64,000 nt of DNA from a virus. The translations under genes and the position numbers were made by a program. Positions 10,756-35,216 of this stretch are shown here, piece after piece. Under the pieces are notes generated by a model. The model was not told the DNA's origin. It worked only from the letters and a program-made list of their open reading frames with translations, and did no database searches. Position 1 is the stretch's first letter. The number at the start of each line of letters is the position of its first letter. The DNA lies in the IMG/VR virus record IMGVR_UViG_3300006339_000005, positions 1-64,000 of that record; one strand, written 5' to 3'.

Positions 10756-11922
10756 ATGTCAGAACTACTAGAAAATCGCTGGCAGGATACCAAAACCGCT
10801 CTTTTAGAAGGCCTTAACGGTAACAAGAAAGCAGTGATGGCAAGTACTCTTGAAAACACACGCAAGTGGTTGAATGAGACTGCTACCGCTGGATCTACAT
10901 CAGCAGGTAATGTTGCAACTCTTAACAGAGTTATCCTTCCGGTAATAAGACGGGTTATGCCGACTGTAATAGCTAATGAATTGGTTGGAGTACAACCAAT
11001 GACTGGCCCAGTTGGACAAATCCACACATTGAGAGTTCGTTACGCGGACTTTTCAGATGGTAACGAAATAGGTGAAGAAGCACTTTCACCATTTAAGATC
11101 GCGGCGGCTTATGCAGGTAATGCCACTGACGCTACCCCTGGTGCGGCTGGTACAGCCAATCTAGAAGGTACGGCTGGCAAACGCTTGAGCATCCAAATCT
11201 TAAAACAAACTGTCGAAGCAAAGACTAGAAAGCTATCAGCTCGCTGGACTTTTGAATCGGCACAAGATGCACAAGCACAGCAAGGCATCGACATCGAAGC
11301 AGAAATTATGGCGGCATTAGCCCAAGAAATTACTGCTGAAATCGATCAAGAAGTTCTTGCATCTTTACGTGCTTTAGCAGGTACTCAGAACCAACAAGCA
11401 TACGATCAAAATGCTGTTAGTGGTACTGCAACATTCGTCGGTGACGAACACGCGGCATTGGCTGTAATGGTCAACCGTGTTGCAAATACTATTGCTCAGC
11501 GTACACGTCGTGGTGCTGGTAACTGGGCTGTGGTTTCACCACACGCTCTAACTGTACTACAATCAGCTACAACTTCAGCGTTCGCAAGAACAACTGAAGG
11601 CACTTTTGAAGCTCCAACAAATACAAAATTCGTTGGAACACTAAACGGTGCAATGAAAGTATATGTTGACTCATATGCGGCTGATACTACAGCAGTACTA
11701 GTTGGTTACAAAGGAACAAGTGAAGCGGACGCTCCGTCATTCTACTGCCCATACATCCCATTGATGTCAAGCGGTGTTGTGTTGGATCCAAGTACATTTG
11801 AACCAGTTGTAAGTTTCATGACTAGATATGGATATGTTGAGTTAAACAACACAGCATCTTCACTAGGTAATGCGGCTGACTACTTGGGTACGGTAACCAT
11901 CGCAAACGTAACATTCTCTTAA
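10756..11922 (+). CDS. gp23: Major capsid protein, T4 gp23 family (388 aa)
   Basis: LPVIRRVMP..IA.ELVGVQPMTGPVGQI, RKLSARWTFE.AQD, EIDQE, YCPYIPL, MTRYG. Confidence 0.96.
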   Translation: MSELLENRWQDTKTALLEGLNGNKKAVMASTLENTRKWLNETATAGSTSAGNVATLNRVILPVIRRVMPTVIANELVGVQPMTGPVGQIHTLRVRYADFSDGNEIGEEALSPFKIAAAYAGNATDATPGAAGTANLEGTAGKRLSIQILKQTVEAKTRKLSARWTFESAQDAQAQQGIDIEAEIMAALAQEITAEIDQEVLASLRALAGTQNQQAYDQNAVSGTATFVGDEHAALAVMVNRVANTIAQRTRRGAGNWAVVSPHALTVLQSATTSAFARTTEGTFEAPTNTKFVGTLNGAMKVYVDSYAADTTAVLVGYKGTSEADAPSFYCPYIPLMSSGVVLDPSTFEPVVSFMTRYGYVELNNTASSLGNAADYLGTVTIANVTFS

Positions 11923-11944: not shown

Positions 11945-11978
11945 GAGAGGGCGGTCTTAGGATCGCCCTTTCTTTTTC
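11945..11978 (+). terminator. Intrinsic terminator after the major capsid gene
   Basis: 12-bp stem gagagggcggtc/gatcgccctttc, ttag loop, then a T-tract. Confidence 0.85.
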
Positions 11979-11981
11979 TAT

Positions 11982-12001
11982 TTTGGATAAACTTATCCAC
12001 A
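11982..12001. promoter_or_regulatory. Inverted pair of DnaA-box-like 9-mers
   Basis: TTATCCACA (perfect) at 11993-12001; tttggataa at 11982-11990 reads TTATCCAAA (1 mismatch) on minus; 2-bp spacer. Confidence 0.55.
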
Positions 12002-12056
12002 AAAAAATAAAGAAAATCGTTGACTTTTAACTATAAGATGTTATTATACATATAAT
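12001..12056 (+). promoter_or_regulatory. Sigma70-type promoter with an A-tract UP element
   Basis: A-rich tract 12001-12016, TTGACT 12020-12025, TGn-TATTAT 12039-12047 (16-bp spacer), second TATAAT at 12051-12056. Confidence 0.7.
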
Positions 12057-12057
12057 A

Positions 12058-12270
12058 CTTAGACGGTAGCTCTGTTTAAGTAGGAAGTGTGCAAGGAAGA
12101 GCCTCTTACCAGAGGGGTGAACTTGACTGTACAGGGGTGGTACCCAGGGTGGGTAGCTGAAAGGCGCTTATCCAAATCGACTTACCAGTCGGGTATAGGT
12201 TTTCCGCAACAATAGATAGGTATCTGTGAGGCGGGATTGTAGGTGTAACCAAGTCCTACCATTTCCACTA
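12058..12270 (+). ncRNA. Putative ~210-nt structured non-coding RNA, family not identified
   Basis: No ORF; about 50% GC (hand count over 12061-12240); has its own promoter and terminator; multiple stems including 5'/3' end pairing and a GAAA tetraloop. Confidence 0.65.
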
Positions 12271-12285
12271 TAAATTTAATGAGTC

Positions 12286-12327
12286 GAGCCCAGGATGGCT
12301 ATTAAACGCTGTTCTGGGCTTTCTCTT
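12286..12327 (+). terminator. Intrinsic terminator closing the putative ncRNA
   Basis: gagcccaggatggc/gctgttctgggctt stem followed by tctctt. Confidence 0.75.
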
Positions 12328-12413
12328 GATAAATAGCTTTAAGTAAACGAGCCCGAAAGGGACTTATGGGGACAACACCCCGTAAACTTAGAACGTTTAA
12401 CAGGAGAAAACAA
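12328..12413 (+). promoter_or_regulatory. Late promoter GATAAATA plus a structured 5' leader
   Basis: GATAAATA 12328-12335; stem taaacg/cgttta (12344-12349/12394-12399) encloses a ccc-gaaa-ggg hairpin and a tatgggg/ccccgta hairpin; SD aggag at 12402. Confidence 0.6.
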
Positions 12414-12785
12414 ATGGGAAGACCAGTAAACAAAAGAATCTTTGGAACAGCCGTTGGTAACGTCGCAGTTACTAGCTATTATTTTTCAGGAGGAGAAGAA
12501 GCTCAAGAACCGCAAGGCTCAATTGTAAAACAAACAGGAACTAATTATTTTTTAGTTACTGATGGCACTACAACTGAAAACTTGCAGTTGGTTAATGGAG
12601 TACAAGATTCCTTAGGCGAAGGCGAATTCATCGTAAATGCTAAAGATGATAGTGGAACGGCTACACAAGTTACAAAGTTCTACAATAGAACAGTTATTAC
12701 TGAAGGAACCGACAAATATCCTTATACATTAAGTGATAGTAACGCGGCTTCTGCCTCAGTAAGAACAGTAGATGTAATTACGTAA
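12414..12785 (+). CDS. Small virion protein, paralog 1 (MGRPVNKR..., true start 12414)
   Basis: aggag SD before the in-frame ATG at 12414; clearly paralogous to 12882-13262. Confidence 0.8.
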   Translation: MGRPVNKRIFGTAVGNVAVTSYYFSGGEEAQEPQGSIVKQTGTNYFLVTDGTTTENLQLVNGVQDSLGEGEFIVNAKDDSGTATQVTKFYNRTVITEGTDKYPYTLSDSNAASASVRTVDVIT

Positions 12786-12881: not shown

Positions 12882-13262
12882 ATGGGTAGACCAGTAAACA
12901 AACGAAATTTTGGAGAAGGTAATGGAAAACTCCAGGTTACACGCCATTTTTTCACAGGACAAGCTGAAGCATCTACAAAAGCATGGATTTTAGCACAACG
13001 TTCAGTAAATAAATTTAAGGTATCTGATGGTACCACTACTGAAATTTTATTGTTAGTTAATAAAGCCGCTGGAACATTAGTAGCTGGCGAAATGTCAATT
13101 GACGGAGTACTGGATGATTCAACAGTTGTTCAAATTACAAAAATTTGGAATAACGTCGTTCAGTATGAAGGTACGACACGAGGAAAAATGGTCATCGGTG
13201 GAAGTGACGCAGGTGGCGAAGACGATGCAACTGCAAATACTGTAACAGTTGATGGGCAATAA
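12882..13262 (+). CDS. Small virion protein, paralog 2 (126 aa)
   Basis: MGRPVNKR..G....VT..FF.G..EA, F.V.DGTTTE.L.LVN and QVTK/QITK motifs shared with paralog 1. Confidence 0.8.
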   Translation: MGRPVNKRNFGEGNGKLQVTRHFFTGQAEASTKAWILAQRSVNKFKVSDGTTTEILLLVNKAAGTLVAGEMSIDGVLDDSTVVQITKIWNNVVQYEGTTRGKMVIGGSDAGGEDDATANTVTVDGQ

Positions 13263-25097: not shown

Positions 25098-28000
25098 ATG
25101 GCTGAATTTAAACTAGGTAGAATAAGATTTATATGGAAAGGTGCTTGGGTTACAAGTACCGAATATTTCCGTGATGATATAATTCGCTACGGCGGACGAA
25201 CATATATCTGTATTTCAGGGCATACATCAGCGGTATTATTTGTAACAGACGAAGACACTAAATGGCAGAAATTTTCCGACGGTTCAGAATGGCAAAGCGA
25301 CTGGAATTCAGGCGCTGTTTACAAAGTTAATGACATTGTAAAATACGGCGGATATCTATATATTTGTAACACAGGACATACATCAGAAACTCCGGGTGGT
25401 AAATTAGAAACAGACCAAGCAAAATGGGATCTATTTTCTGAAGGGTTTGACTGGAAAGATATTTGGGAAACTAGTACACATTATAAAGTTAATGACATTG
25501 TAAAATATGGCGGAACACTTTACCTATGTACAGTCCCACATACATCTTCAGGAACATTTCAATCTGATGAAGATGGATTAGAAGCAGACAGTGACAAATG
25601 GGATATTTTTGCACAAGGTCAAGATTGGAAAACTGATTGGGTTCAAGCAACAAGATATAAAAAACACGACGAAGTAAAATACGGTGGACAACTTTATATT
25701 TGTAATGAAGGACACATTTCCGGATCAACAGTAGAAGGTTTAGAAGCAGACCAAACTAAATGGGACTACTTACATAAAGGTATAGAATATAAATCAGTTC
25801 ACGCAGGAACAACAAGATATAAAGTTAATGATGTTGTTAAGTCAGGCGGCGGACTATGGATTTGTAATAATTACCACACATCAACAACAACGTTAGCCGC
25901 AGATGTAACAGTATCAGGTAGCGTAGCAACTATTGGTACTATTAGTGGTCCTGATGCAACACGTACTGCTGGAACTTATAATGACGTAAAAGGTACAACA
26001 AGTGGTTCAGGTGATGTAGCAAACACAAGATTTAATATTGTTATTGATGGCGCAGGCGCGGCAACATCAGTTACAGTCGTTCACGGAGGTACTGGCCACG
26101 TAGCAACAGACGTAATTTCAATTCCTAATACACAAATTGGTGGATCGGGTGCAACACTTACATTTAACGTTGCATCAATTGAAAATACTACACAATGGTA
26201 TGAATTTGTTGCAGGTTTAGAATTTGAAGACAGTTGGTCAGGTGCAACAAGTTACCAACCAGGTGACTTTGTAACTTACGGTGGTTACTCTTACATTTCA
26301 AAAACAAATAATACTAACATTCTTCCGTTTGGTAACGCAGGCGACTGGGATTTATTTACAACTGGATTTAACTTACAAGGTGATTACAATAACGGTACTG
26401 CTTATAAAGTAGGTGATGTTATTAGACTTGGTGGTTACACATATCTTGCTAAAGCAAATACAACAGGTAATAGACCACCTAACTTAACTTATTGGGAAAG
26501 ATTAAACCAAGGTATTGAATGGAAAGATGCCTGGGCAGATGCAACACTTTATGATGCCGGCGATGCTGTACGAGGTATAGGAAATGTTAACTCTTATATT
26601 TGTATACTAGCACACACATCAGATGAAATTAGTGTACAAAATAGACCAGACCAAGACGTAGCAGGAACTTACTGGCAATTATTAAGTGGTGGTGTTGAAT
26701 CAGGAAACTTAACTACTGTTGGTGATTTAGTTTACTACGGTGGGTCAGGTCCTGTTAGACTACCAATTGGTACTCCTGGACAAGTATTAAAAGTTAATGC
26801 GGCTGGCGATGCTCCTGAATGGGCATACTTTGGATCAGTTGATGGTGTTTACTATGTGTCTCCAAATGGAACAGATGGTGTTGCACCAGTAGACGGAATT
26901 ACACTTGATAAACCTTGGAGATCAGTTAGATATGCATTAAATGAAATTAGAAAAGGGCCTAGAAATCCAGACGGTGCAAATTTATTAAAACGTAATAAAG
27001 CATTCTTAATGGAAGAAGCTGGTATACAATATGTTGCTTGGAAAATAGCAAATAACTCAGCACCTTTCAGTACAGGTTATACACATGACGCGGCAAAATG
27101 TAGTCGTGATATGGGAATTATTATTGATGGTTTTCTTTACGACATTGGTCATGGTGACAATCGACGTAGTGTAGCAAATGCTTTATCATTCTTTTCACTT
27201 GCTGGAGCAAGTTATATTGAAGGACAAGCATTACAAAACGTTGATGTAATTAATTACATGGTATCAGTTATTGATACTACACTTAGAAATTTAGCACCAG
27301 CAACAAATTATCAAACAACAAATGGTATTGCAGGTGGATCACAAGTTATACAAAAAATTGATGCAACAAAGAATGTTGAAGCAGGTGTTTATGCACGTAT
27401 TCAAGAATTAGCGGCAATAATTACTGATGCAATCTCGGCGGGTAGTATTTCTACTATACCACCAGAAGCATTTGCATACAATACATTATTTGTAAAAACA
27501 GGAATATACAAAGAAACATTACCAATGATTGTTCCAGAAGGAACAGCAGTTATTGGTGACGAATTACGTTCAACGGAAATTAATGCATTAGGTTCAGAAG
27601 ATTCTGTAACTACTCTTGAGCATACAACATTAACACTTAATGGATTGTTACATATTAAATCTATTATTGATAACATTTGTGTTAACGGTGCAATTACAAA
27701 AACTCCGGCAGGTGCCCACTTAACAATGGATTCATTTAGTGGCGCAGATGCTTTAAGAACAGCAGGAACATATACAGGTGTAACAGGTACAAGTTCTGGA
27801 ACAGGTACTGTAGGAACATTTGATATTGTTGTTGATGGTTCAGGTGCAGTTACAAGTATTACAGTTATTACAGCTGGGCACGGACACGTAATTAATAATA
27901 CAATTACAATTGATGATGCTAACTTAGGTGGTGGCGCCGCGGCAAACTTTACAATGGATGTTGCAACAATTGCCGCAGGTAATACACTTACACAAGATGT

Positions 28001-31000
28001 AGCATTACCGGCAGGTACTGCAACGGCAGGTACACGAGCACAAGAATTATTCCAAGACATTCATGATAAAATTAATAATGAAGTATTTGGTGTAGGTACA
28101 GCGCCAGAAACAACAGGTAAAACTGGAAGAGATTCAACACAAGGTTATGTTGATGCAAGATTAAGAATTTTTGAGAATTTAGATTTTATTGCTGAAGAAG
28201 TTGTAGCATACTTACAAACAACTTATACTAGCAAATATGATTTTACTAAAGATGCAAAATGCAAAAGTGATATGAAAGCATATCTAGATGCAGTTATACA
28301 TGACTTAGAAAATTATGGAAATTATAAATCAATTTTATACGGACGATGGTCTTCAAATGCTGTTAAAGGTTCGAAGCACGAAGATATGTATTATTGCCAA
28401 AATGCAACTGGCGTAAGAAATCAAACAGTTCAAGGACTAAAAGGTACATTTTATAGAGCAAGTGCTACAACGGCAATTCAACACGGTAAAGAAGAAGGTG
28501 ATATAATTGAACTTAGAGATATTAATGTTAATTGTTCATTAGCAAATAAAATATATCCGCTAGTTAATTCACTTCATACTCCAACAGCGGCAACATATTC
28601 ACCGTCGACGGGACTAATGGAATTAACTATTGGTCAGCACGGTTATAGAGCTAATCAATATGTTAGTATTGCTACAGATAGTTTAACTTTTAGTTGTACA
28701 TTCGATAATAATGCAACAAATCATACATATCCAAGAGCAACAGGATCATCCCATCCAGGTGGCGCCGATCCTGCTTACAATACACCAGTTGAAATTACAA
28801 CTGTCGGCGGAACAACAATTACTGTAGATGTTGGTACAGGAAGTGCTGATTCTCATAGTGTATCAGCCGCAACATATACACCTGCAACAGGAGTAATGGA
28901 ACTAACTATTGGGTCACATACTTTAGTAACTGGTAATTATGTTGATCTTGTTACAGATAGCTTAACTTTTACTTGTGCTTTAGATAGTCATGCAACAAAT
29001 CATACATATCCAAGAGCAACAGGTTCATCTGCTTCTTATAGTGTATCAGCGGCAACATATACACCAGCAACGGGAGTAATGGAACTAACTATTGGCTCAC
29101 ATCAATATGAAACTGGCAAATTTGTTAATATTGCTATGGATAGTTTAACGTTTACTTGTGCTTTAGATAGTCATGCAACAAATCATACATATCCAAGAGC
29201 AAGTGGATCATCTGCTCCAGGTGGATATGATTATGCTTATAATACACCAGTAGAAATTACAAGTAAAACAGCAACAACAATTACAATAAATGTTGGTATA
29301 TCAAGTAATACGTCAGCACATACATTTGTAAGTGCTACTGCTGATTGTATAACAAATCCAGGATCTGTAGTTGATACTCCAACAGCGGCAACATATGATG
29401 CGGCAACTGGTTTAATGACATTAACTATTGGATCACATGGTTATAAAGTTGGTCATTATGTTAATATTGCTACAGATAGTTTAACGTTTACTTGTACATT
29501 CGATAATAATGCAACAAATCATACATATCCAAGAGCAAGTGGATCATCCTATGCAGGTGGCGCCGACCCAGCTTACAATATATCAGTGCCAATTACGGCA
29601 GTAGGAGCAACAACGATTACAATGAATGTTGGTACAGGAAGTGCTGACACTCATAGTGTATCAGCGGCAACATATACACCAACAACGGGAGTAATGGAAC
29701 TAACTATTGGCTCACATACTTTAGTAACTGGTAATTATGTTGATCTTGCTACAGATAGCTTAACATTTACTTGTACATTCGATAATAATGCAACAAATCA
29801 TACATATCCAAGAGCAAGTGGATCAGCGGCTTCTTATAGTGTATCAGCCGCAACATATACACCTGCAACAGGAGTAATGGAACTAACTATTGGATCACAT
29901 CAATATGAAACTGGCAAATTTATTAAGATTGCTACAGATAGCTTAACATTTACTTGTGCTTTAGATAGTCATGCAACAAATCATACATATCCAAGAGCAA
30001 CAGGTTCATCTGCTCCAGGCGGAGCTGACTATGCCTACGATACACCAGTAGAAATTACTGGAGTAACAGCAACAACAATTACAATGAATGTTGGTATATC
30101 AAGTGATACGTCAGTACATACATTTGTAAGTGCTACTGCTGATTGTATAACAAATCCAGGCGGAGCAGACTATGTACACAATACACCAATTGCAATTACT
30201 GGAGTAACAGCAACAACAATTACAATGAATGTCGGTACAGGAAACATTACCTCTTATACTCCATCAGCGGCAACATATACACCAGCAACGGGAGTAATGG
30301 AACTAACTATTGGGTCACATACTTTAGTGGCTGGTAATTATGTTGATCTTGCTACAGATAGCTTAACATTTACTTGTGCTTTAGATAGTCATGCAACAAA
30401 TCATACATATCCAAGAGCATCAGGAAGTGCCGCACCAGGTGGTGCTGACTATGCCTACGCTACACCAGTAGAAATTACTGGAGTAACAGCAACAACAATT
30501 ACAATGAACGTAGGTGTATCAAGTGATACGTCAGCACATACATTTGTAAGTGCTACTGCTGATTGTGTAACGAATTCAACGGCACATACATTTGTAAGTG
30601 CTACTGCTGATTGTGTAGCAAATTCAACGGCACATACATTTGTAAGTGCAACCGCTGGTGCGATCACAGGCGGAGGTGACTATGTACACAATACACCAAT
30701 TGCAATTACTGGAGTAACAGCAACAACAATTACAATGAACGTAGGTGTATCAAGTGATCTATCGGCACATACATTTGTAAGTGCTACTGCTGATTGTGTA
30801 ACAAATTCAATGGCACATACATTTATAAGTGCTACTGCTGATTGTATATCAAGTGAAGAAACAACATTTAAGATGTTGGCATCTAATGCAACAGCAACAA
30901 CATTTGATGTAGATCTTGGAACAAGTACAATTGCTCAAACTTATGTTAAGGGTGGCGTAGCTATTCCTCAAACAGGAACACAAGAAGGTAATAGACTTGA

Positions 31001-34000
31001 TATTCGAAACTTCGATTATGACACAGGAACTGGTATTGCTACAATTACAACAATGGGCGGTGCTACTGTTCAAGCTATAAACCATGGTAAAAGTTATGGT
31101 GATTTAATTGAGATAGATAGTGTACTAATGAGTTGTGCTCAAGGTAATAAAACGTATCCAGTAAATACTTTTTCAACAGCACATTCAACTGCTCAACAAT
31201 TTACAGTTTTAGCTTCAGGCTTAACTGCAACGGAATTTGAAATTGATATTGGAACAAGTACAACTGCAACAACTTATGTTAGTGGTGGTACAGTTGTTAA
31301 AACTGGTAATGTTAGATTAACAATTACAGGTTTTGCTTATGACATAGGAACTGGTATTGCTACAGTTACTACAGGAACTCACAGTTTATCAGCAAGTGAT
31401 AATGTACAAATACGCGGCGTTGTTATGACGTGTGCTCACGGAACTAAAGTATACCCAGCAATACCTCATGCAGGAATTTATCCAGTAACAAGCGTACCTG
31501 ATGATGATACATTAGACTTTTTCCTACCACCTAGTGCTATTGCACATACTTACGTTAGTGGTGGAACAGTAAAATCAGTAACGATATCTAATGTTGGTAG
31601 TTCAACAGGAATTACAAATTTAGTTTATGTTAACGACACAGGACTTGCTACTGTTACTTCAGCAACACATGGACTAGCTGTAGGTGATAGAGTTAAAATA
31701 TCAAGCGTTACACTTTCTTGTTCAACTGGAAATAAAGTATATCCAGATGCAAATGTATCTTCAGGTGTATTTTATGTTTATGATGTACCTGATGGTAACA
31801 CATTTATTTTTGGTATGGATAGAAGTGATGTCGCACTTACTTACGTTAGTGGTGGGTCAGCACAAAAAGTTACACCGAATTTAACTAATACTGTTAATAT
31901 AACTAGTTTTGTATTTGACACACACTCAGGACATGGATTGGTTGCAACTAATCTTGTTAAGTTACGAGGTATAGAAACAACTTGTTCATATGGAAGTAAA
32001 ATTTATCCACAAATGCCGTTCTCAGGAACGTTTCCGATTACTAGAAAAGTTAGTGATACAGAATTTAACTTCTTCTTACCAGATAGTAATATCGACCACA
32101 CTTATGTTAGTGGTGGTACAGTTAAAACAGTTACAGTTACTAATGTAGGTAATTCAACAAACATTACAGCATTTGATTATAACAACACAACTGGATACAC
32201 AACTGTTGACTCTACGGCTCACGGATTAGCTGTAAATGATTATGTAAGAATTCAAAGTGTAAAAGTTTCTTGTACACAAGGAGAAAAGGTTTATCCTGAT
32301 GCTCATTCAAGTTCAGCAATCTTTGTAGTTTACGATGTTCTTGGTCCTAATAGATTTGTTTATGCTATGGATAAGAGTACATTTGTTCACACTTATGTTA
32401 GTGGTGGTATTGTACAAAAAATTACATACACAGCAACAGATTCTAAACCTATAAGTGCTTTTAGGTATGAACCAAAAGGACTTGTAAATGAGTACGGAAC
32501 AAAACGTCCAAATTCAGGAGCATTTTTATCCTTAGATCCAAGTTGGGGACCAAATGATAACGAAGCGTTCATTCACTTAAAATCTCCTTACATTCAAAAC
32601 GTTACTACAATAGGTGAAAAATGTGTTGGTTGTAAGATTGATGGTGACTTACACGCAGGCGGACTTGACTCTTTTGTTTGTAATGACTTTACGCAAATTG
32701 TTGACGAAGGTATTTCTATATGGTGTACTAATTTAGGTAGAGTAGAACTTGTTTCGGTCTTTACATACTATGGACACATTGGATACTTTGCAGAAAACGG
32801 TGGAAAAATTCGTGCTACAAACGGAAACAACTCCTATGGAGACTTTGGTTCAGTAGCAGAAGGTATTGACTTAACAGAAGAGGCAATTATAGCATACGTT
32901 GACAATAGATCATATCAAGCAGTTATTGGTAATGTTATCGTTAACAACAATAGTATTATTGCAATTGAATACACTAATTGTGGACGAGATTATGTTTCAG
33001 CAAATACAAGTTATACATTTACAGGAGATGGTTACGGTATAACAGGAGCAACTGCGGTAACTGTTACTGGCGGTGTTTCACAAGTTAGACTACTTGGTAC
33101 TTCAAGTACATTTGGTGGTGCAGATTATATTACAGCTACTAATACAATTCAAGCTGGAACTGATACACAAATTACATTATCAAATACAGATACTGCTATA
33201 AGTTCAGCATACTTAGGAATGGCGATTGTACTTACAAGTGGTAAAGGTGCAGGACAAATTGCATACATTGATACATATGACGCGGCTACAAAAGTTGCTA
33301 CAGTTCTAAAACCAAACGACGATACTGCTGGTTGGAATCATATGACTGGTGCAACGATTGAAACATTATTAGATAATACAACAACATATAGTATTGAACC
33401 AAGAGTAACAATTACTGCTCCTAGCGGTGACGGATCAACAGCTACAGGTACTGCAAAAGGTAGAGCAAAAGTTGTAGATGGAAAAATAATTGAAGTTAGA
33501 CTTTATGATCCAGGTGCAAGTTATATTACTAAACCTACAGTAACATTTACTGATCCTAACAATACAGCAGAAGCATTATACGAAGTTTATCTTGGTGATG
33601 GTGCATTAACACAACCTACATTTACTGATCCAGGGACAGGATGGACAAGTGTAAGTGCTACTGTACTTGACGTAGGAGTAACTAAAAATATTACAGGTGT
33701 AACATATACAGCTAACCCATTTGCAGTATCATTACTTGAAGGAAATAAAGAATATATTAAAGACGAAGTTACTGCTTGGATTGATAATCAAATTGCAGGC
33801 GGTACTAATCCAAGTCTATGGCTTAACTTTGTACATGATAAAGTTAAATGTGAAAGAGATATTGGATTCTTAATTGATGCATTCGTTCACGATTTAAAAT
33901 ACGGAAGTAACAGAGATACAGTTACAGCCGCTCGAAGATATTGGATTGGATCTACCTTTGTTGGTGGTGAAACAACTCAAATAATTGCGGCATATGAACA

Positions 34001-35216
34001 AATGAGAATTATTATTTTAGATTATATCTTAGATAATACTTTATATGCTTCGTTACAAACTGTAACAACACAAATTACATATGGTAACAACGGTGAAGCA
34101 GGAGCTCAAACTAGATGTGCTGAATTAATTTCTATTATTACACACGTTGTTGCACACGGACTAGCAGTAATACCAGAAAGTGGCGGCGAAGGTTATGTAG
34201 ATATTACTGTTACAGGACATAATATTTTAAGTCAAACAAAAGTTAAAGTTGATGGTATTGTAGGAACACATCAATTAAATAACAATACTTTCTATGTTAA
34301 TGTTGTTGACGTTGATACTTTAAGATTATATATTGACGAAAACTTATTACATCCAGCAGTCGGAGATAACTTCACTACATATATTTCAGATGGTACAATT
34401 GTTCACGGTGCTGGTTATAGAGATGAAAAACAAAACGGAAAATATTTACAAGTTGAATCAATGTTAGCAATTCCTCAATCAGGAGCAAACATTGAATTTG
34501 CTACTGTACCAAATACGTGGTTTAAACTAGTTTCGGTTACAAACTTAACAGGAAGTAACCCTTATTCTGCACTATTACAATTGAGTCCAGATTTAACTAT
34601 TCCACAAGCACCACTACATGGTGAAAAGGTAACAATTAGAATTAGATACAGTCAAGTTCGACTAACAGGACACGACTTCTTACACGTTGGTACTGGTAAC
34701 TTTGTTAGCACAAACTATCCAGGACAACCTGCTGTATTAACAGATCAACTTGACGAAGCTGTTGATAGTGGTGGCGGGCGTGTATTCCTAACATCAACGG
34801 ATCAATCTGGTAACTTTAGAGTTGGTGATTTATTTACGGTTGAACAAGCTACAGGTATAGCAACCCTAAATGCAGATGCATTTAGTATTTCAGGATTACA
34901 AGAATTACAATTAGGTAGTGTTGAACTTGGTACTGCTGGTGCTACTATTAATGAGTTTAGTACAGATGGCACATTTACAGCAAATAGTGATCAAATTGTT
35001 CCTACGCAACGTGCAATTAAGACATTTATTACGTCCCAAATTGGTGGCGGTGCATCGGAATTGAACGTAAATAGTGTAACAGCAGGTATTATTAATATTC
35101 AAGGCAACACAATCACTACAACGACGGGTGCTAGAATAAATACAACTGCAACAATGCATTTCTCAGCTGGAGTAAGTGGAGCCCCTGTAGCGATGCAACA
35201 GTTTTTACTGAGTTAA
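25098..35216 (+). CDS. Giant modular tail fibre/appendage protein (3372 aa)
   Basis: Same scaffold as the 1752-aa gene (MAEF...RIR..WK..W; YSQVRLTGHDFL.VGTG; STDQ.GNFRVG.LF.V.Q.TG) plus about 1600 aa of inserted repeat modules; preceded by GATAAATA 25063-25070. Confidence 0.9.
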   Translation: MAEFKLGRIRFIWKGAWVTSTEYFRDDIIRYGGRTYICISGHTSAVLFVTDEDTKWQKFSDGSEWQSDWNSGAVYKVNDIVKYGGYLYICNTGHTSETPGGKLETDQAKWDLFSEGFDWKDIWETSTHYKVNDIVKYGGTLYLCTVPHTSSGTFQSDEDGLEADSDKWDIFAQGQDWKTDWVQATRYKKHDEVKYGGQLYICNEGHISGSTVEGLEADQTKWDYLHKGIEYKSVHAGTTRYKVNDVVKSGGGLWICNNYHTSTTTLAADVTVSGSVATIGTISGPDATRTAGTYNDVKGTTSGSGDVANTRFNIVIDGAGAATSVTVVHGGTGHVATDVISIPNTQIGGSGATLTFNVASIENTTQWYEFVAGLEFEDSWSGATSYQPGDFVTYGGYSYISKTNNTNILPFGNAGDWDLFTTGFNLQGDYNNGTAYKVGDVIRLGGYTYLAKANTTGNRPPNLTYWERLNQGIEWKDAWADATLYDAGDAVRGIGNVNSYICILAHTSDEISVQNRPDQDVAGTYWQLLSGGVESGNLTTVGDLVYYGGSGPVRLPIGTPGQVLKVNAAGDAPEWAYFGSVDGVYYVSPNGTDGVAPVDGITLDKPWRSVRYALNEIRKGPRNPDGANLLKRNKAFLMEEAGIQYVAWKIANNSAPFSTGYTHDAAKCSRDMGIIIDGFLYDIGHGDNRRSVANALSFFSLAGASYIEGQALQNVDVINYMVSVIDTTLRNLAPATNYQTTNGIAGGSQVIQKIDATKNVEAGVYARIQELAAIITDAISAGSISTIPPEAFAYNTLFVKTGIYKETLPMIVPEGTAVIGDELRSTEINALGSEDSVTTLEHTTLTLNGLLHIKSIIDNICVNGAITKTPAGAHLTMDSFSGADALRTAGTYTGVTGTSSGTGTVGTFDIVVDGSGAVTSITVITAGHGHVINNTITIDDANLGGGAAANFTMDVATIAAGNTLTQDVALPAGTATAGTRAQELFQDIHDKINNEVFGVGTAPETTGKTGRDSTQGYVDARLRIFENLDFIAEEVVAYLQTTYTSKYDFTKDAKCKSDMKAYLDAVIHDLENYGNYKSILYGRWSSNAVKGSKHEDMYYCQNATGVRNQTVQGLKGTFYRASATTAIQHGKEEGDIIELRDINVNCSLANKIYPLVNSLHTPTAATYSPSTGLMELTIGQHGYRANQYVSIATDSLTFSCTFDNNATNHTYPRATGSSHPGGADPAYNTPVEITTVGGTTITVDVGTGSADSHSVSAATYTPATGVMELTIGSHTLVTGNYVDLVTDSLTFTCALDSHATNHTYPRATGSSASYSVSAATYTPATGVMELTIGSHQYETGKFVNIAMDSLTFTCALDSHATNHTYPRASGSSAPGGYDYAYNTPVEITSKTATTITINVGISSNTSAHTFVSATADCITNPGSVVDTPTAATYDAATGLMTLTIGSHGYKVGHYVNIATDSLTFTCTFDNNATNHTYPRASGSSYAGGADPAYNISVPITAVGATTITMNVGTGSADTHSVSAATYTPTTGVMELTIGSHTLVTGNYVDLATDSLTFTCTFDNNATNHTYPRASGSAASYSVSAATYTPATGVMELTIGSHQYETGKFIKIATDSLTFTCALDSHATNHTYPRATGSSAPGGADYAYDTPVEITGVTATTITMNVGISSDTSVHTFVSATADCITNPGGADYVHNTPIAITGVTATTITMNVGTGNITSYTPSAATYTPATGVMELTIGSHTLVAGNYVDLATDSLTFTCALDSHATNHTYPRASGSAAPGGADYAYATPVEITGVTATTITMNVGVSSDTSAHTFVSATADCVTNSTAHTFVSATADCVANSTAHTFVSATAGAITGGGDYVHNTPIAITGVTATTITMNVGVSSDLSAHTFVSATADCVTNSMAHTFISATADCISSEETTFKMLASNATATTFDVDLGTSTIAQTYVKGGVAIPQTGTQEGNRLDIRNFDYDTGTGIATITTMGGATVQAINHGKSYGDLIEIDSVLMSCAQGNKTYPVNTFSTAHSTAQQFTVLASGLTATEFEIDIGTSTTATTYVSGGTVVKTGNVRLTITGFAYDIGTGIATVTTGTHSLSASDNVQIRGVVMTCAHGTKVYPAIPHAGIYPVTSVPDDDTLDFFLPPSAIAHTYVSGGTVKSVTISNVGSSTGITNLVYVNDTGLATVTSATHGLAVGDRVKISSVTLSCSTGNKVYPDANVSSGVFYVYDVPDGNTFIFGMDRSDVALTYVSGGSAQKVTPNLTNTVNITSFVFDTHSGHGLVATNLVKLRGIETTCSYGSKIYPQMPFSGTFPITRKVSDTEFNFFLPDSNIDHTYVSGGTVKTVTVTNVGNSTNITAFDYNNTTGYTTVDSTAHGLAVNDYVRIQSVKVSCTQGEKVYPDAHSSSAIFVVYDVLGPNRFVYAMDKSTFVHTYVSGGIVQKITYTATDSKPISAFRYEPKGLVNEYGTKRPNSGAFLSLDPSWGPNDNEAFIHLKSPYIQNVTTIGEKCVGCKIDGDLHAGGLDSFVCNDFTQIVDEGISIWCTNLGRVELVSVFTYYGHIGYFAENGGKIRATNGNNSYGDFGSVAEGIDLTEEAIIAYVDNRSYQAVIGNVIVNNNSIIAIEYTNCGRDYVSANTSYTFTGDGYGITGATAVTVTGGVSQVRLLGTSSTFGGADYITATNTIQAGTDTQITLSNTDTAISSAYLGMAIVLTSGKGAGQIAYIDTYDAATKVATVLKPNDDTAGWNHMTGATIETLLDNTTTYSIEPRVTITAPSGDGSTATGTAKGRAKVVDGKIIEVRLYDPGASYITKPTVTFTDPNNTAEALYEVYLGDGALTQPTFTDPGTGWTSVSATVLDVGVTKNITGVTYTANPFAVSLLEGNKEYIKDEVTAWIDNQIAGGTNPSLWLNFVHDKVKCERDIGFLIDAFVHDLKYGSNRDTVTAARRYWIGSTFVGGETTQIIAAYEQMRIIILDYILDNTLYASLQTVTTQITYGNNGEAGAQTRCAELISIITHVVAHGLAVIPESGGEGYVDITVTGHNILSQTKVKVDGIVGTHQLNNNTFYVNVVDVDTLRLYIDENLLHPAVGDNFTTYISDGTIVHGAGYRDEKQNGKYLQVESMLAIPQSGANIEFATVPNTWFKLVSVTNLTGSNPYSALLQLSPDLTIPQAPLHGEKVTIRIRYSQVRLTGHDFLHVGTGNFVSTNYPGQPAVLTDQLDEAVDSGGGRVFLTSTDQSGNFRVGDLFTVEQATGIATLNADAFSISGLQELQLGSVELGTAGATINEFSTDGTFTANSDQIVPTQRAIKTFITSQIGGGASELNVNSVTAGIINIQGNTITTTTGARINTTATMHFSAGVSGAPVAMQQFLLS
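28572..30854 (+). repeat. Seven nested copies of the ~105-aa 'YTPATG-TFTC-YPRA-HTFVSATADC' module
   Basis: Near-identical DNA copies, for example a 420-bp register between 29881 and 30301. Confidence 0.9.

Follow-up and report, generated by a model that had tools for sequence, protein, structure and literature searches.

A manA-family RNA gene with its own predicted promoter and terminator, 3' of the capsid gene in an uncultured jumbo phage

We analysed a stretch of 64,000 nucleotides of viral DNA, hereafter called the window, which forms the first 64 kb of the IMG/VR viral contig IMGVR_UViG_3300006339_000005 (126.6 kb, 35.9% GC, ~33% complete). Its + strand is ~88% coding and carries a gene for a major capsid protein of the T4 gp23 type. 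The DNA of this gene is ~68% identical to that of ~350-kb jumbo phages, e.g. Vibrio phage 2.275.O and Yersinia phage fHe-Yen9-04, which identifies the carrier as an uncultured jumbo T4-like phage. The capsid gene is separated from the following ORF, named orfA here, by 491 nt in which there is no credible ORF. The features of the locus are the following.

10756–11922, + strand: major capsid protein gene, T4 gp23 type (Pfam Gp23, 4.7e-98; PHROG 138, major head protein)
11945–11982, + strand: predicted intrinsic terminator ending the capsid transcript (12-bp stem with 7 GC pairs, then a T-run)
12000–12019, + strand: A-rich tract 5' of the -35 box, read from the sequence; putative UP-like element
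12020–12047, + strand: predicted sigma70-type promoter, near-consensus (TTGACT, 16-nt spacer, TG-extended -10 TATTAT)
12056–12269, + strand: manA-family RNA, helices P1 to P9 (RF01745 match, minimum free energy [MFE] fold and covariation)
12286–12327, + strand: predicted intrinsic terminator of the RNA gene (-21.1 kcal/mol; 14-bp stem with arms 12286–12299/12308–12321, 8-nt loop, then a U-rich tail)
12328–12335, + strand: GATAAATA, putative late-type promoter of orfA, analogous to the T4 late promoter TATAAATA
12349–12416, + strand: freshwater-2-like leader (RF02980; 43.3 bits, i.e. below the cut-off of 49.9)
12414–12785, + strand: orfA, 123 aa, ATG at 12414, paralogue of orfB
12882–13262, + strand: orfB, paralogue of orfA

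When the whole 64-kb window was scanned with Rfam, a single match above cut-off was obtained. Positions 12056–12269 of the + strand correspond to the manA RNA (RF01745). The score of 66.5 bits (E 1e-14) exceeds the gathering score of 55.2, and the match is full length (model positions 1–192). The manA motif was described by Weinberg et al. in 2010 (PMC2864571), and its alignment was updated in Rfam 14.3 (PMC7779021). The RNA of the window is an ordinary member of this catalogued family. An initial annotation made from the letters alone had flagged a structured RNA at this place, which the E-value and the folding statistics bear out, and had added that it could not be assigned to a known family and that an Rfam hit would remove its novelty. 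RF01745 supplies the family, and novelty at that level is accordingly gone. The description of an ORF-free island of about 50% GC was accurate, the GC content of the RNA being 0.486 as compared with 0.359 for the 126.6-kb contig.

The MFE of the segment 12054–12325 is -103 kcal/mol (z = -4.45), and none of 200 shuffled sequences folded as well in this single-sequence analysis. The same fold contains every helix of the family, including the four-way junction P4-P5-P6-P7 together with P3, P8 and P9. The helices are listed below for the + strand as found in the MFE fold, followed by the loops. Their numbering is that of the supplement to a recent preprint on manA RNAs (10.64898/2026.07.01.735769).

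12056–12066/12072–12082: P1
12083–12089/12260–12266: P2, the closing stem
12092–12095/12122–12125: P3a
12101–12107/12112–12118: P3b (cctct/agagg)
12127–12132/12193–12198: P4
12134–12136/12143–12145: P5
12147–12158/12163–12173: P6, with a GAAA loop
12177–12182/12187–12192: P7
12202–12207/12231–12236: P8a
12212–12217/12222–12227: P8b
12239–12243/12255–12259: P9
12107–12110: loop L3
12137–12142: loop L5
12159–12162: loop L6 (GAAA)
12182–12187: loop L7
12217–12222: loop L8
12244–12254: loop L9

Among the six helices drawn in the initial annotation, P1, P2, P3b, P6 with its GAAA loop and P9 are found in this fold. The sixth, 12123–12129/12187–12193, is not, as its letters belong to P3a, P4 and P7, and P4, P5, P7 and P8 had been missed. 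The conserved loops of the family are present, namely L5 GUGGUA, the GNRA tetraloop L6 GAAA, and L7 UUACCA with its ACCA. Mimicry of a tRNA 3'-CCA end and T-box-like UGGN pairing were considered for L5 and L7 and excluded, since these loops covary to UAGU/ACUA.

We retrieved 80 related IMG/VR loci with the capsid protein (79–94% identity). The Rfam model detected the RNA in 16 of them, locus L005 being among those that it missed. With a clade-specific covariance model built from these 16 copies and the Rfam-derived structure, the RNA was found in 25 of the 80 loci, six of the 25 copies being cut by a contig end. In these 25 relatives the RNA is always on the same strand as the capsid gene, 106 to 1110 nt 3' of its stop codon. 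RNAalifold applied to an unfitted MAFFT alignment recovered P2, P4, P5, P6, P8 and P9, with compensation at 19 of 24 pairs. In the model-fitted alignment of 26 sequences, which is biased toward the structure, 80.5% of the cells are paired, versus 62% after column shuffling and 36–51% when the strands are slid by one to three columns. Double, compensatory changes affect 43 of its 50 pairs, which none of 500 shuffles matched. The unfitted result and the published covariation of the family, with 48 significant pairs (PMC7779021), concur with the fitted one. The two conformers proposed in the initial annotation, on the basis of a pairing between 12080–12085 and 12254–12259, are not supported, as the equivalent region of the relatives is not complementary to the 3' strands of P9.

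We collected 80 further viral contigs that share the same 16-nt core around L5. The same capsid gene is present 120 to 1090 nt upstream in 57 of them, and 19 lack it there. The sigma70-type promoter is found at the expected spot in 68 of the 79 contigs with enough upstream sequence, non-capsid neighbourhoods included, and most of the inspected non-capsid copies carry a terminator as well.

The promoter of the window places the predicted transcription start at ~12053–12056, just 5' of P1. A strict pattern consisting of the -35 box and the extended -10 box has one match in the 64-kb window, at 12020–12047. The same pattern is located 39–43 nt 5' of the RNA match in 20 of the 25 relatives, with slight variants in the remainder, and it has only six other matches across all 80 loci. 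The A-tract that precedes GGTTGAC is also found in most relatives. A generic scan for promoters and terminators was not significant, with nine promoter-like sites for 5.9 expected, so that the evidence for the promoter comes from its conservation in relatives. A second strict sigma70 promoter was detected at contig position 107385, in a different module. No Rfam match was found at that site, which lies in front of a protein gene rather than another RNA; this is consistent with host-type promoters driving non-late genes in the phage.

The 14-bp terminator begins 17 nt after P2; a simple scan missed it because of its 8-nt loop and the G-U pairs of its stem. Terminators of 10–14 bp, whose stem sequences vary, are found a few to ~17 nt after the end of the RNA in 16 of the 19 relatives with enough sequence. 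The exceptions are L005, which is the closest relative, L008 and L059. The initial annotation had already read the locus as a stand-alone RNA unit, bounded by a host-type promoter and a terminator of its own and embedded among late genes, and the conservation of these flanking signals upholds this reading.

The gene that follows has regulatory elements of its own. The GATAAATA motif occurs at nine sites in the window (2304, 12328, 12853, 15093, 17456, 25063, 35550, 36704 and 44828), all of them on the + strand, intergenic and 24–131 nt 5' of a + strand ORF. It also follows the terminator in most relatives. The late promoter of T4 is TATAAATA, and judging from its position and from T4 biology, GATAAATA is probably the counterpart of that promoter in this clade. 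The motif is also present upstream of a single + strand ORF of ~3370 aa that spans positions 25098–35216, in a structural block.

Between the GATAAATA motif and orfA, the window harbours the freshwater-2-like leader. Above-cut-off matches to freshwater-2 were obtained at the same place in four relatives (L014:4981-5066, L032:4287-4360, L060:4160-4235 and L065:3357-3431). The leader is preceded by a GATAAATA motif, and its 3' end is formed by the Shine-Dalgarno sequence and initiation codon of the orfA-family gene. Freshwater-2 (RF02980), a family recorded from metagenomes only, turns out to be the leader of orfA-family genes in this jumbo-phage clade. orfA and orfB are tandem paralogues that match the same region in relatives; both proteins start with MGRP and each gene has its own GATAAATA motif. 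Neither has a match in Pfam, in PHROG or, using tblastn, in cultured phages, so the neighbouring gene provides no functional clue. The RNA is 120–175 nt 5' of an orfA-family gene in most relatives, and the gene after the cassette differs in L008, L044, L059 and L075.

With a terminator placed upstream of orfA's own late promoter and separate leader, the RNA is insulated on both sides. We regard it as a separate transcription unit, whose start, 3' end and abundance are predictions from the sequence. As orfA has its own late promoter and leader, the RNA itself would be the product of the gene. None of the papers that we found describes such a stand-alone layout for manA.

The cassette is patchily distributed. 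It is present in 26 of the 57 informative rows of the capsid-protein tree, in which well-supported branches force at least eight gains or losses; the parsimony score over these 57 rows is 16, as compared with a mean of 19.1 after shuffling. The window belongs to a fully supported clade of six members, five of which have the RNA. Sister phages with near-identical capsids lack the cassette (L009, L073, L033, L057 and L069), no manA copy was found anywhere in five related contigs of 160–215 kb, and in two cultured relatives merely 120–150 nt follow the capsid gene. In the sister phage L009, whose capsid protein is 91% identical, the promoter, a P1-like 5' hairpin and a terminator are kept (L009:4248-4400), and ~100 nt of unrelated sequence replace the manA core. 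What is left in L009 may be a remnant; alternatively, the cassette may encode another small RNA there.

In several relatives, the interval between the capsid gene and the cassette harbours other genes, coding for a NifU/IscU-like protein (1.5e-54), an AdoMet decarboxylase (1.7e-11) and a CHAP/NlpC-P60 protein (L056:4831-5223, L058:4291-4662 and L045:3132-3674). These genes mark the site as a hot spot for accessory genes, and a patchy cassette in such a hot spot speaks against an indispensable function in structure or packaging. A small basic ORF of 50–63 aa that ends in RPRCEKNILSDDPRLQKI immediately precedes the manA promoter in several relatives (L058:4736-4888, L043:4268-4459, L036:4005-4196 and L029:4730-4882). 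The window lacks this ORF, for which Pfam gave no match.

The RNA resembles the manA family as described in its P1–P9 architecture with a four-way junction, its GNRA L6, its GUGGU-type L5 and ACCA-type L7 and its occurrence in an aquatic phage. The complementarity of L5 and L7 corresponds to the 'pseudoknot?' of the 2010 description (PMC2864571). The setting is different, however. RF01745 is filed as cis-regulatory, in 5' UTRs of metabolic genes, in cyanophages and Photobacterium, whereas the RNA described here has its own sigma70-type promoter and terminator. Its carrier, a jumbo phage with a gp23-type capsid, and its fixed site behind the capsid gene also depart from the family descriptions. 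Rfam's Cis-reg is a contextual label that lies outside the RF01745 model; the context that it denotes, the 5' UTR of a protein gene, is not what we found, as a terminator and a late promoter precede orfA. This suggests that the label is at best incomplete for the manA family.

The closest copy in a cultured phage is that of Pelagibacter phage Mosig EXVC030M, which is 72% identical over 83% of the RNA; we found no other carrier among cultured phages. This unannotated copy scores 64 bits against RF01745 and is found on the minus strand (L100:2974-3181, i.e. MT647606 ~108164–108371). Like that of the window, it is directly preceded by a promoter with TTGACA and an extended -10 box. In contrast with the window, it is located in a region of replication genes rather than behind the capsid gene, it has no terminator, and the start codon of a rubrerythrin gene comes 22 nt after the RNA. 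A few IMG/VR contigs resemble this leader layout, with a start codon 14–35 nt after the RNA.

A cryo-EM study of five manA RNAs reported that all of them form pentamer-based assemblies, either decamers or a 60-subunit T=1 cage (10.64898/2026.07.01.735769). A0F1 forms the 60-mer, and 67AA, pho_A28C and pho34_A767 form decamers (Ren et al. 2026, 10.64898/2026.07.01.735769). The pentamers are held by intermolecular L5-L7' kissing loops, in addition to L8-L9' or L3-L8' contacts and a contact of the GNRA loop L6 with P6' (10.64898/2026.07.01.735769). The work, a preprint, was performed in vitro with refolded RNA at mg/ml concentrations (10.64898/2026.07.01.735769). The interface loops of these assemblies are present in the phage RNA, where they are complementary and covary within the clade. 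The comparison is between sequences different from ours, observed in vitro, and an RNA known from its sequence, in which L8 and L9 can form only 3 bp.

L5 of the window (GUGGUA) is complementary to L7 (UUACCA) over 5 bp (UGGUA/UACCA). L8 (AGGU) can pair with L9 by GGU/ACC, 3 bp only, or with L3 by UACC/GGUA, 4 bp, which makes the latter an equal candidate, so that more than one set of interfaces and more than one stoichiometry would fit this RNA. Among the relatives, the five L5-L7 columns, counted as fixed columns, are 81.7% paired versus 28–59% when slid, and one of the pairs swaps between G-C (n=11) and A-U (n=8). L8 and L9 change in concert, with the combinations GGU/ACC, AGGAU/AUCCU, GAGA/UCUC, AUGA/UCAU, AAUGAU/AUCAUU, CUGAU/AUCAG and GUG/CAC, and the place of the match in L9 is fixed across relatives. 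Counting strict Watson-Crick matches, the mean L8-L9 match is 3.56 for cognate loops and 2.71 for non-cognate loops, and the observed total was reached in none of 20,000 permutations, a test in which kinship is ignored. When G-U pairs were allowed in the score, cognate and non-cognate loops could not be told apart. Covariation is blind to whether a contact is intra- or intermolecular. That the loops contact each other between molecules is suggested by the preprint and by the different heights at which they would sit on the long P8 and the short P9.

Taken together, these observations lead us to favour a free-standing, accessory manA-family RNA gene behind the capsid gene, whose product probably self-associates and is not a riboswitch. 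The host RNA polymerase with sigma70 would start transcription at ~12054 from the near-consensus promoter. As the model match, the MFE fold and the covariation show, the transcript folds into the 5' hairpin P1, the closing stem P2, P3, the P4-P5-P6-P7 junction, P8 and P9, and it should stop at the 12286–12327 terminator, as judged from sequence and conservation. Since orfA has a late promoter and a leader to itself, the RNA would be the end product. Its copies most likely pair via L5-L7 and L8-L9 (or L3-L8), yielding pentamer-based closed particles, a step for which the complementarity and covariation of the loops provide the grounds here, the in vitro reports being concerned with other manA RNAs.

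Other explanations have to be weighed against this one. The RNA might be a cis-acting leader or riboswitch, in which metabolite sensing controls read-through of the terminator into orfA. The manA motif was rated a probable riboswitch of 5' UTRs (Weinberg et al. 2010, PMC2864571), an aptamer with a terminator behind it is a classic layout, and both the usual orfA-family gene at 120–175 nt and the lack of a terminator in L005 agree with it. The 14–35 nt between RNA and start codon in Mosig and some contigs also indicate that a leader arrangement exists in the family. Nevertheless, the terminators start 3–17 nt past P2 without overlapping the fold, and a joint MFE prediction keeps both structures. 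Blocking the 3' arm of the terminator in the window costs 21.6 kcal/mol, compared with -21.1 for the hairpin itself, and this penalty reaches 80% or more of the terminator energy in 14 of 16 loci; as the loss goes uncompensated in these 14 loci, no competing antiterminator is available. Thus, the hallmark of an expression platform, a terminator that competes with the aptamer or with an antiterminator, is not found. Together with the GATAAATA promoter and separate conserved leader of orfA, the variable downstream gene, and the fact that in the literature that we found 16 years have brought no ligand and homo-oligomers have been reported instead, this makes a riboswitch unlikely. We consider similarly doubtful a monomeric RNA that acts in trans without self-assembly, as a base-pairing regulator or as a decoy titrating a host protein or defence sensor. 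Such an RNA would be in keeping with an independent gene in an accessory hot spot, driven by a strong host-type promoter and distributed as patchily as a moron-type accessory gene. However, its exposed loops covary with each other, whereas a constant external target would require them to be fixed, and no target has been identified.

The decoy and the structural RNA named in the initial annotation may still apply, though as guesses at function. Proximity to the capsid gene raises the possibility of a virion or packaging component. In phi29, the pRNA is an essential, prohead-bound phage RNA made from a host-type promoter; its copies form a ring through intermolecular loop-loop pairs, and its loop identities diversify between relatives. 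By analogy, a loop-paired manA pentamer could dock on a five-fold capsid vertex or on the portal. The adjoining capsid gene, the host-type promoter and the diversified loops fit this idea, as does a pentameric unit held by kissing loops (10.64898/2026.07.01.735769). Yet, unlike pRNA, the manA RNA is missing from sister phages, including the five with near-identical capsids, and from large related contigs; other members of the family are found in bacteria and at sites that are not next to a capsid gene. Furthermore, no match to the phi29 pRNA model (RF00044) was obtained at E-values up to 10, meaning that there is no similarity in sequence or model. We therefore find a packaging ring very improbable. 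Least credible of all is a primer RNA or R-loop at a replication origin, aided by G-runs or a quadruplex, as proposed in the initial annotation on account of four G-runs at 12114–12153 and a promoter within the late region. Those G-runs form part of the covarying helices P3b, P5 and P6, and many relatives have sequence there that is not G-rich, which leaves the quadruplex unsupported as well. The transcript would be highly structured and terminated 17 nt past the fold. The cumulative GC skew climbs steadily from 1 to 30 kb with no turn at 12 kb, which speaks against an origin there, although weakly, as the test covers a genome fragment only.

A stronger version of the self-association that we favour is that the manA RNA is abundant in the infected cell and forms RNA-only pentamers or cages which are themselves the functional agent; they might dock on five-fold capsid vertices or on the machinery of packaging, or else a host factor or defence sensor might be enclosed or sequestered by them. 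We see this as a long shot. If true, it would be the first case of a natural RNA cage that has a biological role.

From 2010 on, the manA RNA has stood as an orphan among 'riboswitch candidates'; in 2026, it was reported to assemble in vitro into a natural RNA-only icosahedral cage, the first of its kind. Beyond the catalogue entry, our analysis adds the free-standing gene layout, a fixed post-capsid site in a clade of jumbo phages and covariation, in nature, at the interfaces seen by cryo-EM. That the gene is insulated and has a strong host-type promoter, and that its interface loops covary, argues that it is the RNA particle, rather than gene regulation, that is under selection. The presence or absence of the cassette between sister phages offers a concrete genetic setting in which the function of the RNA may be tested.
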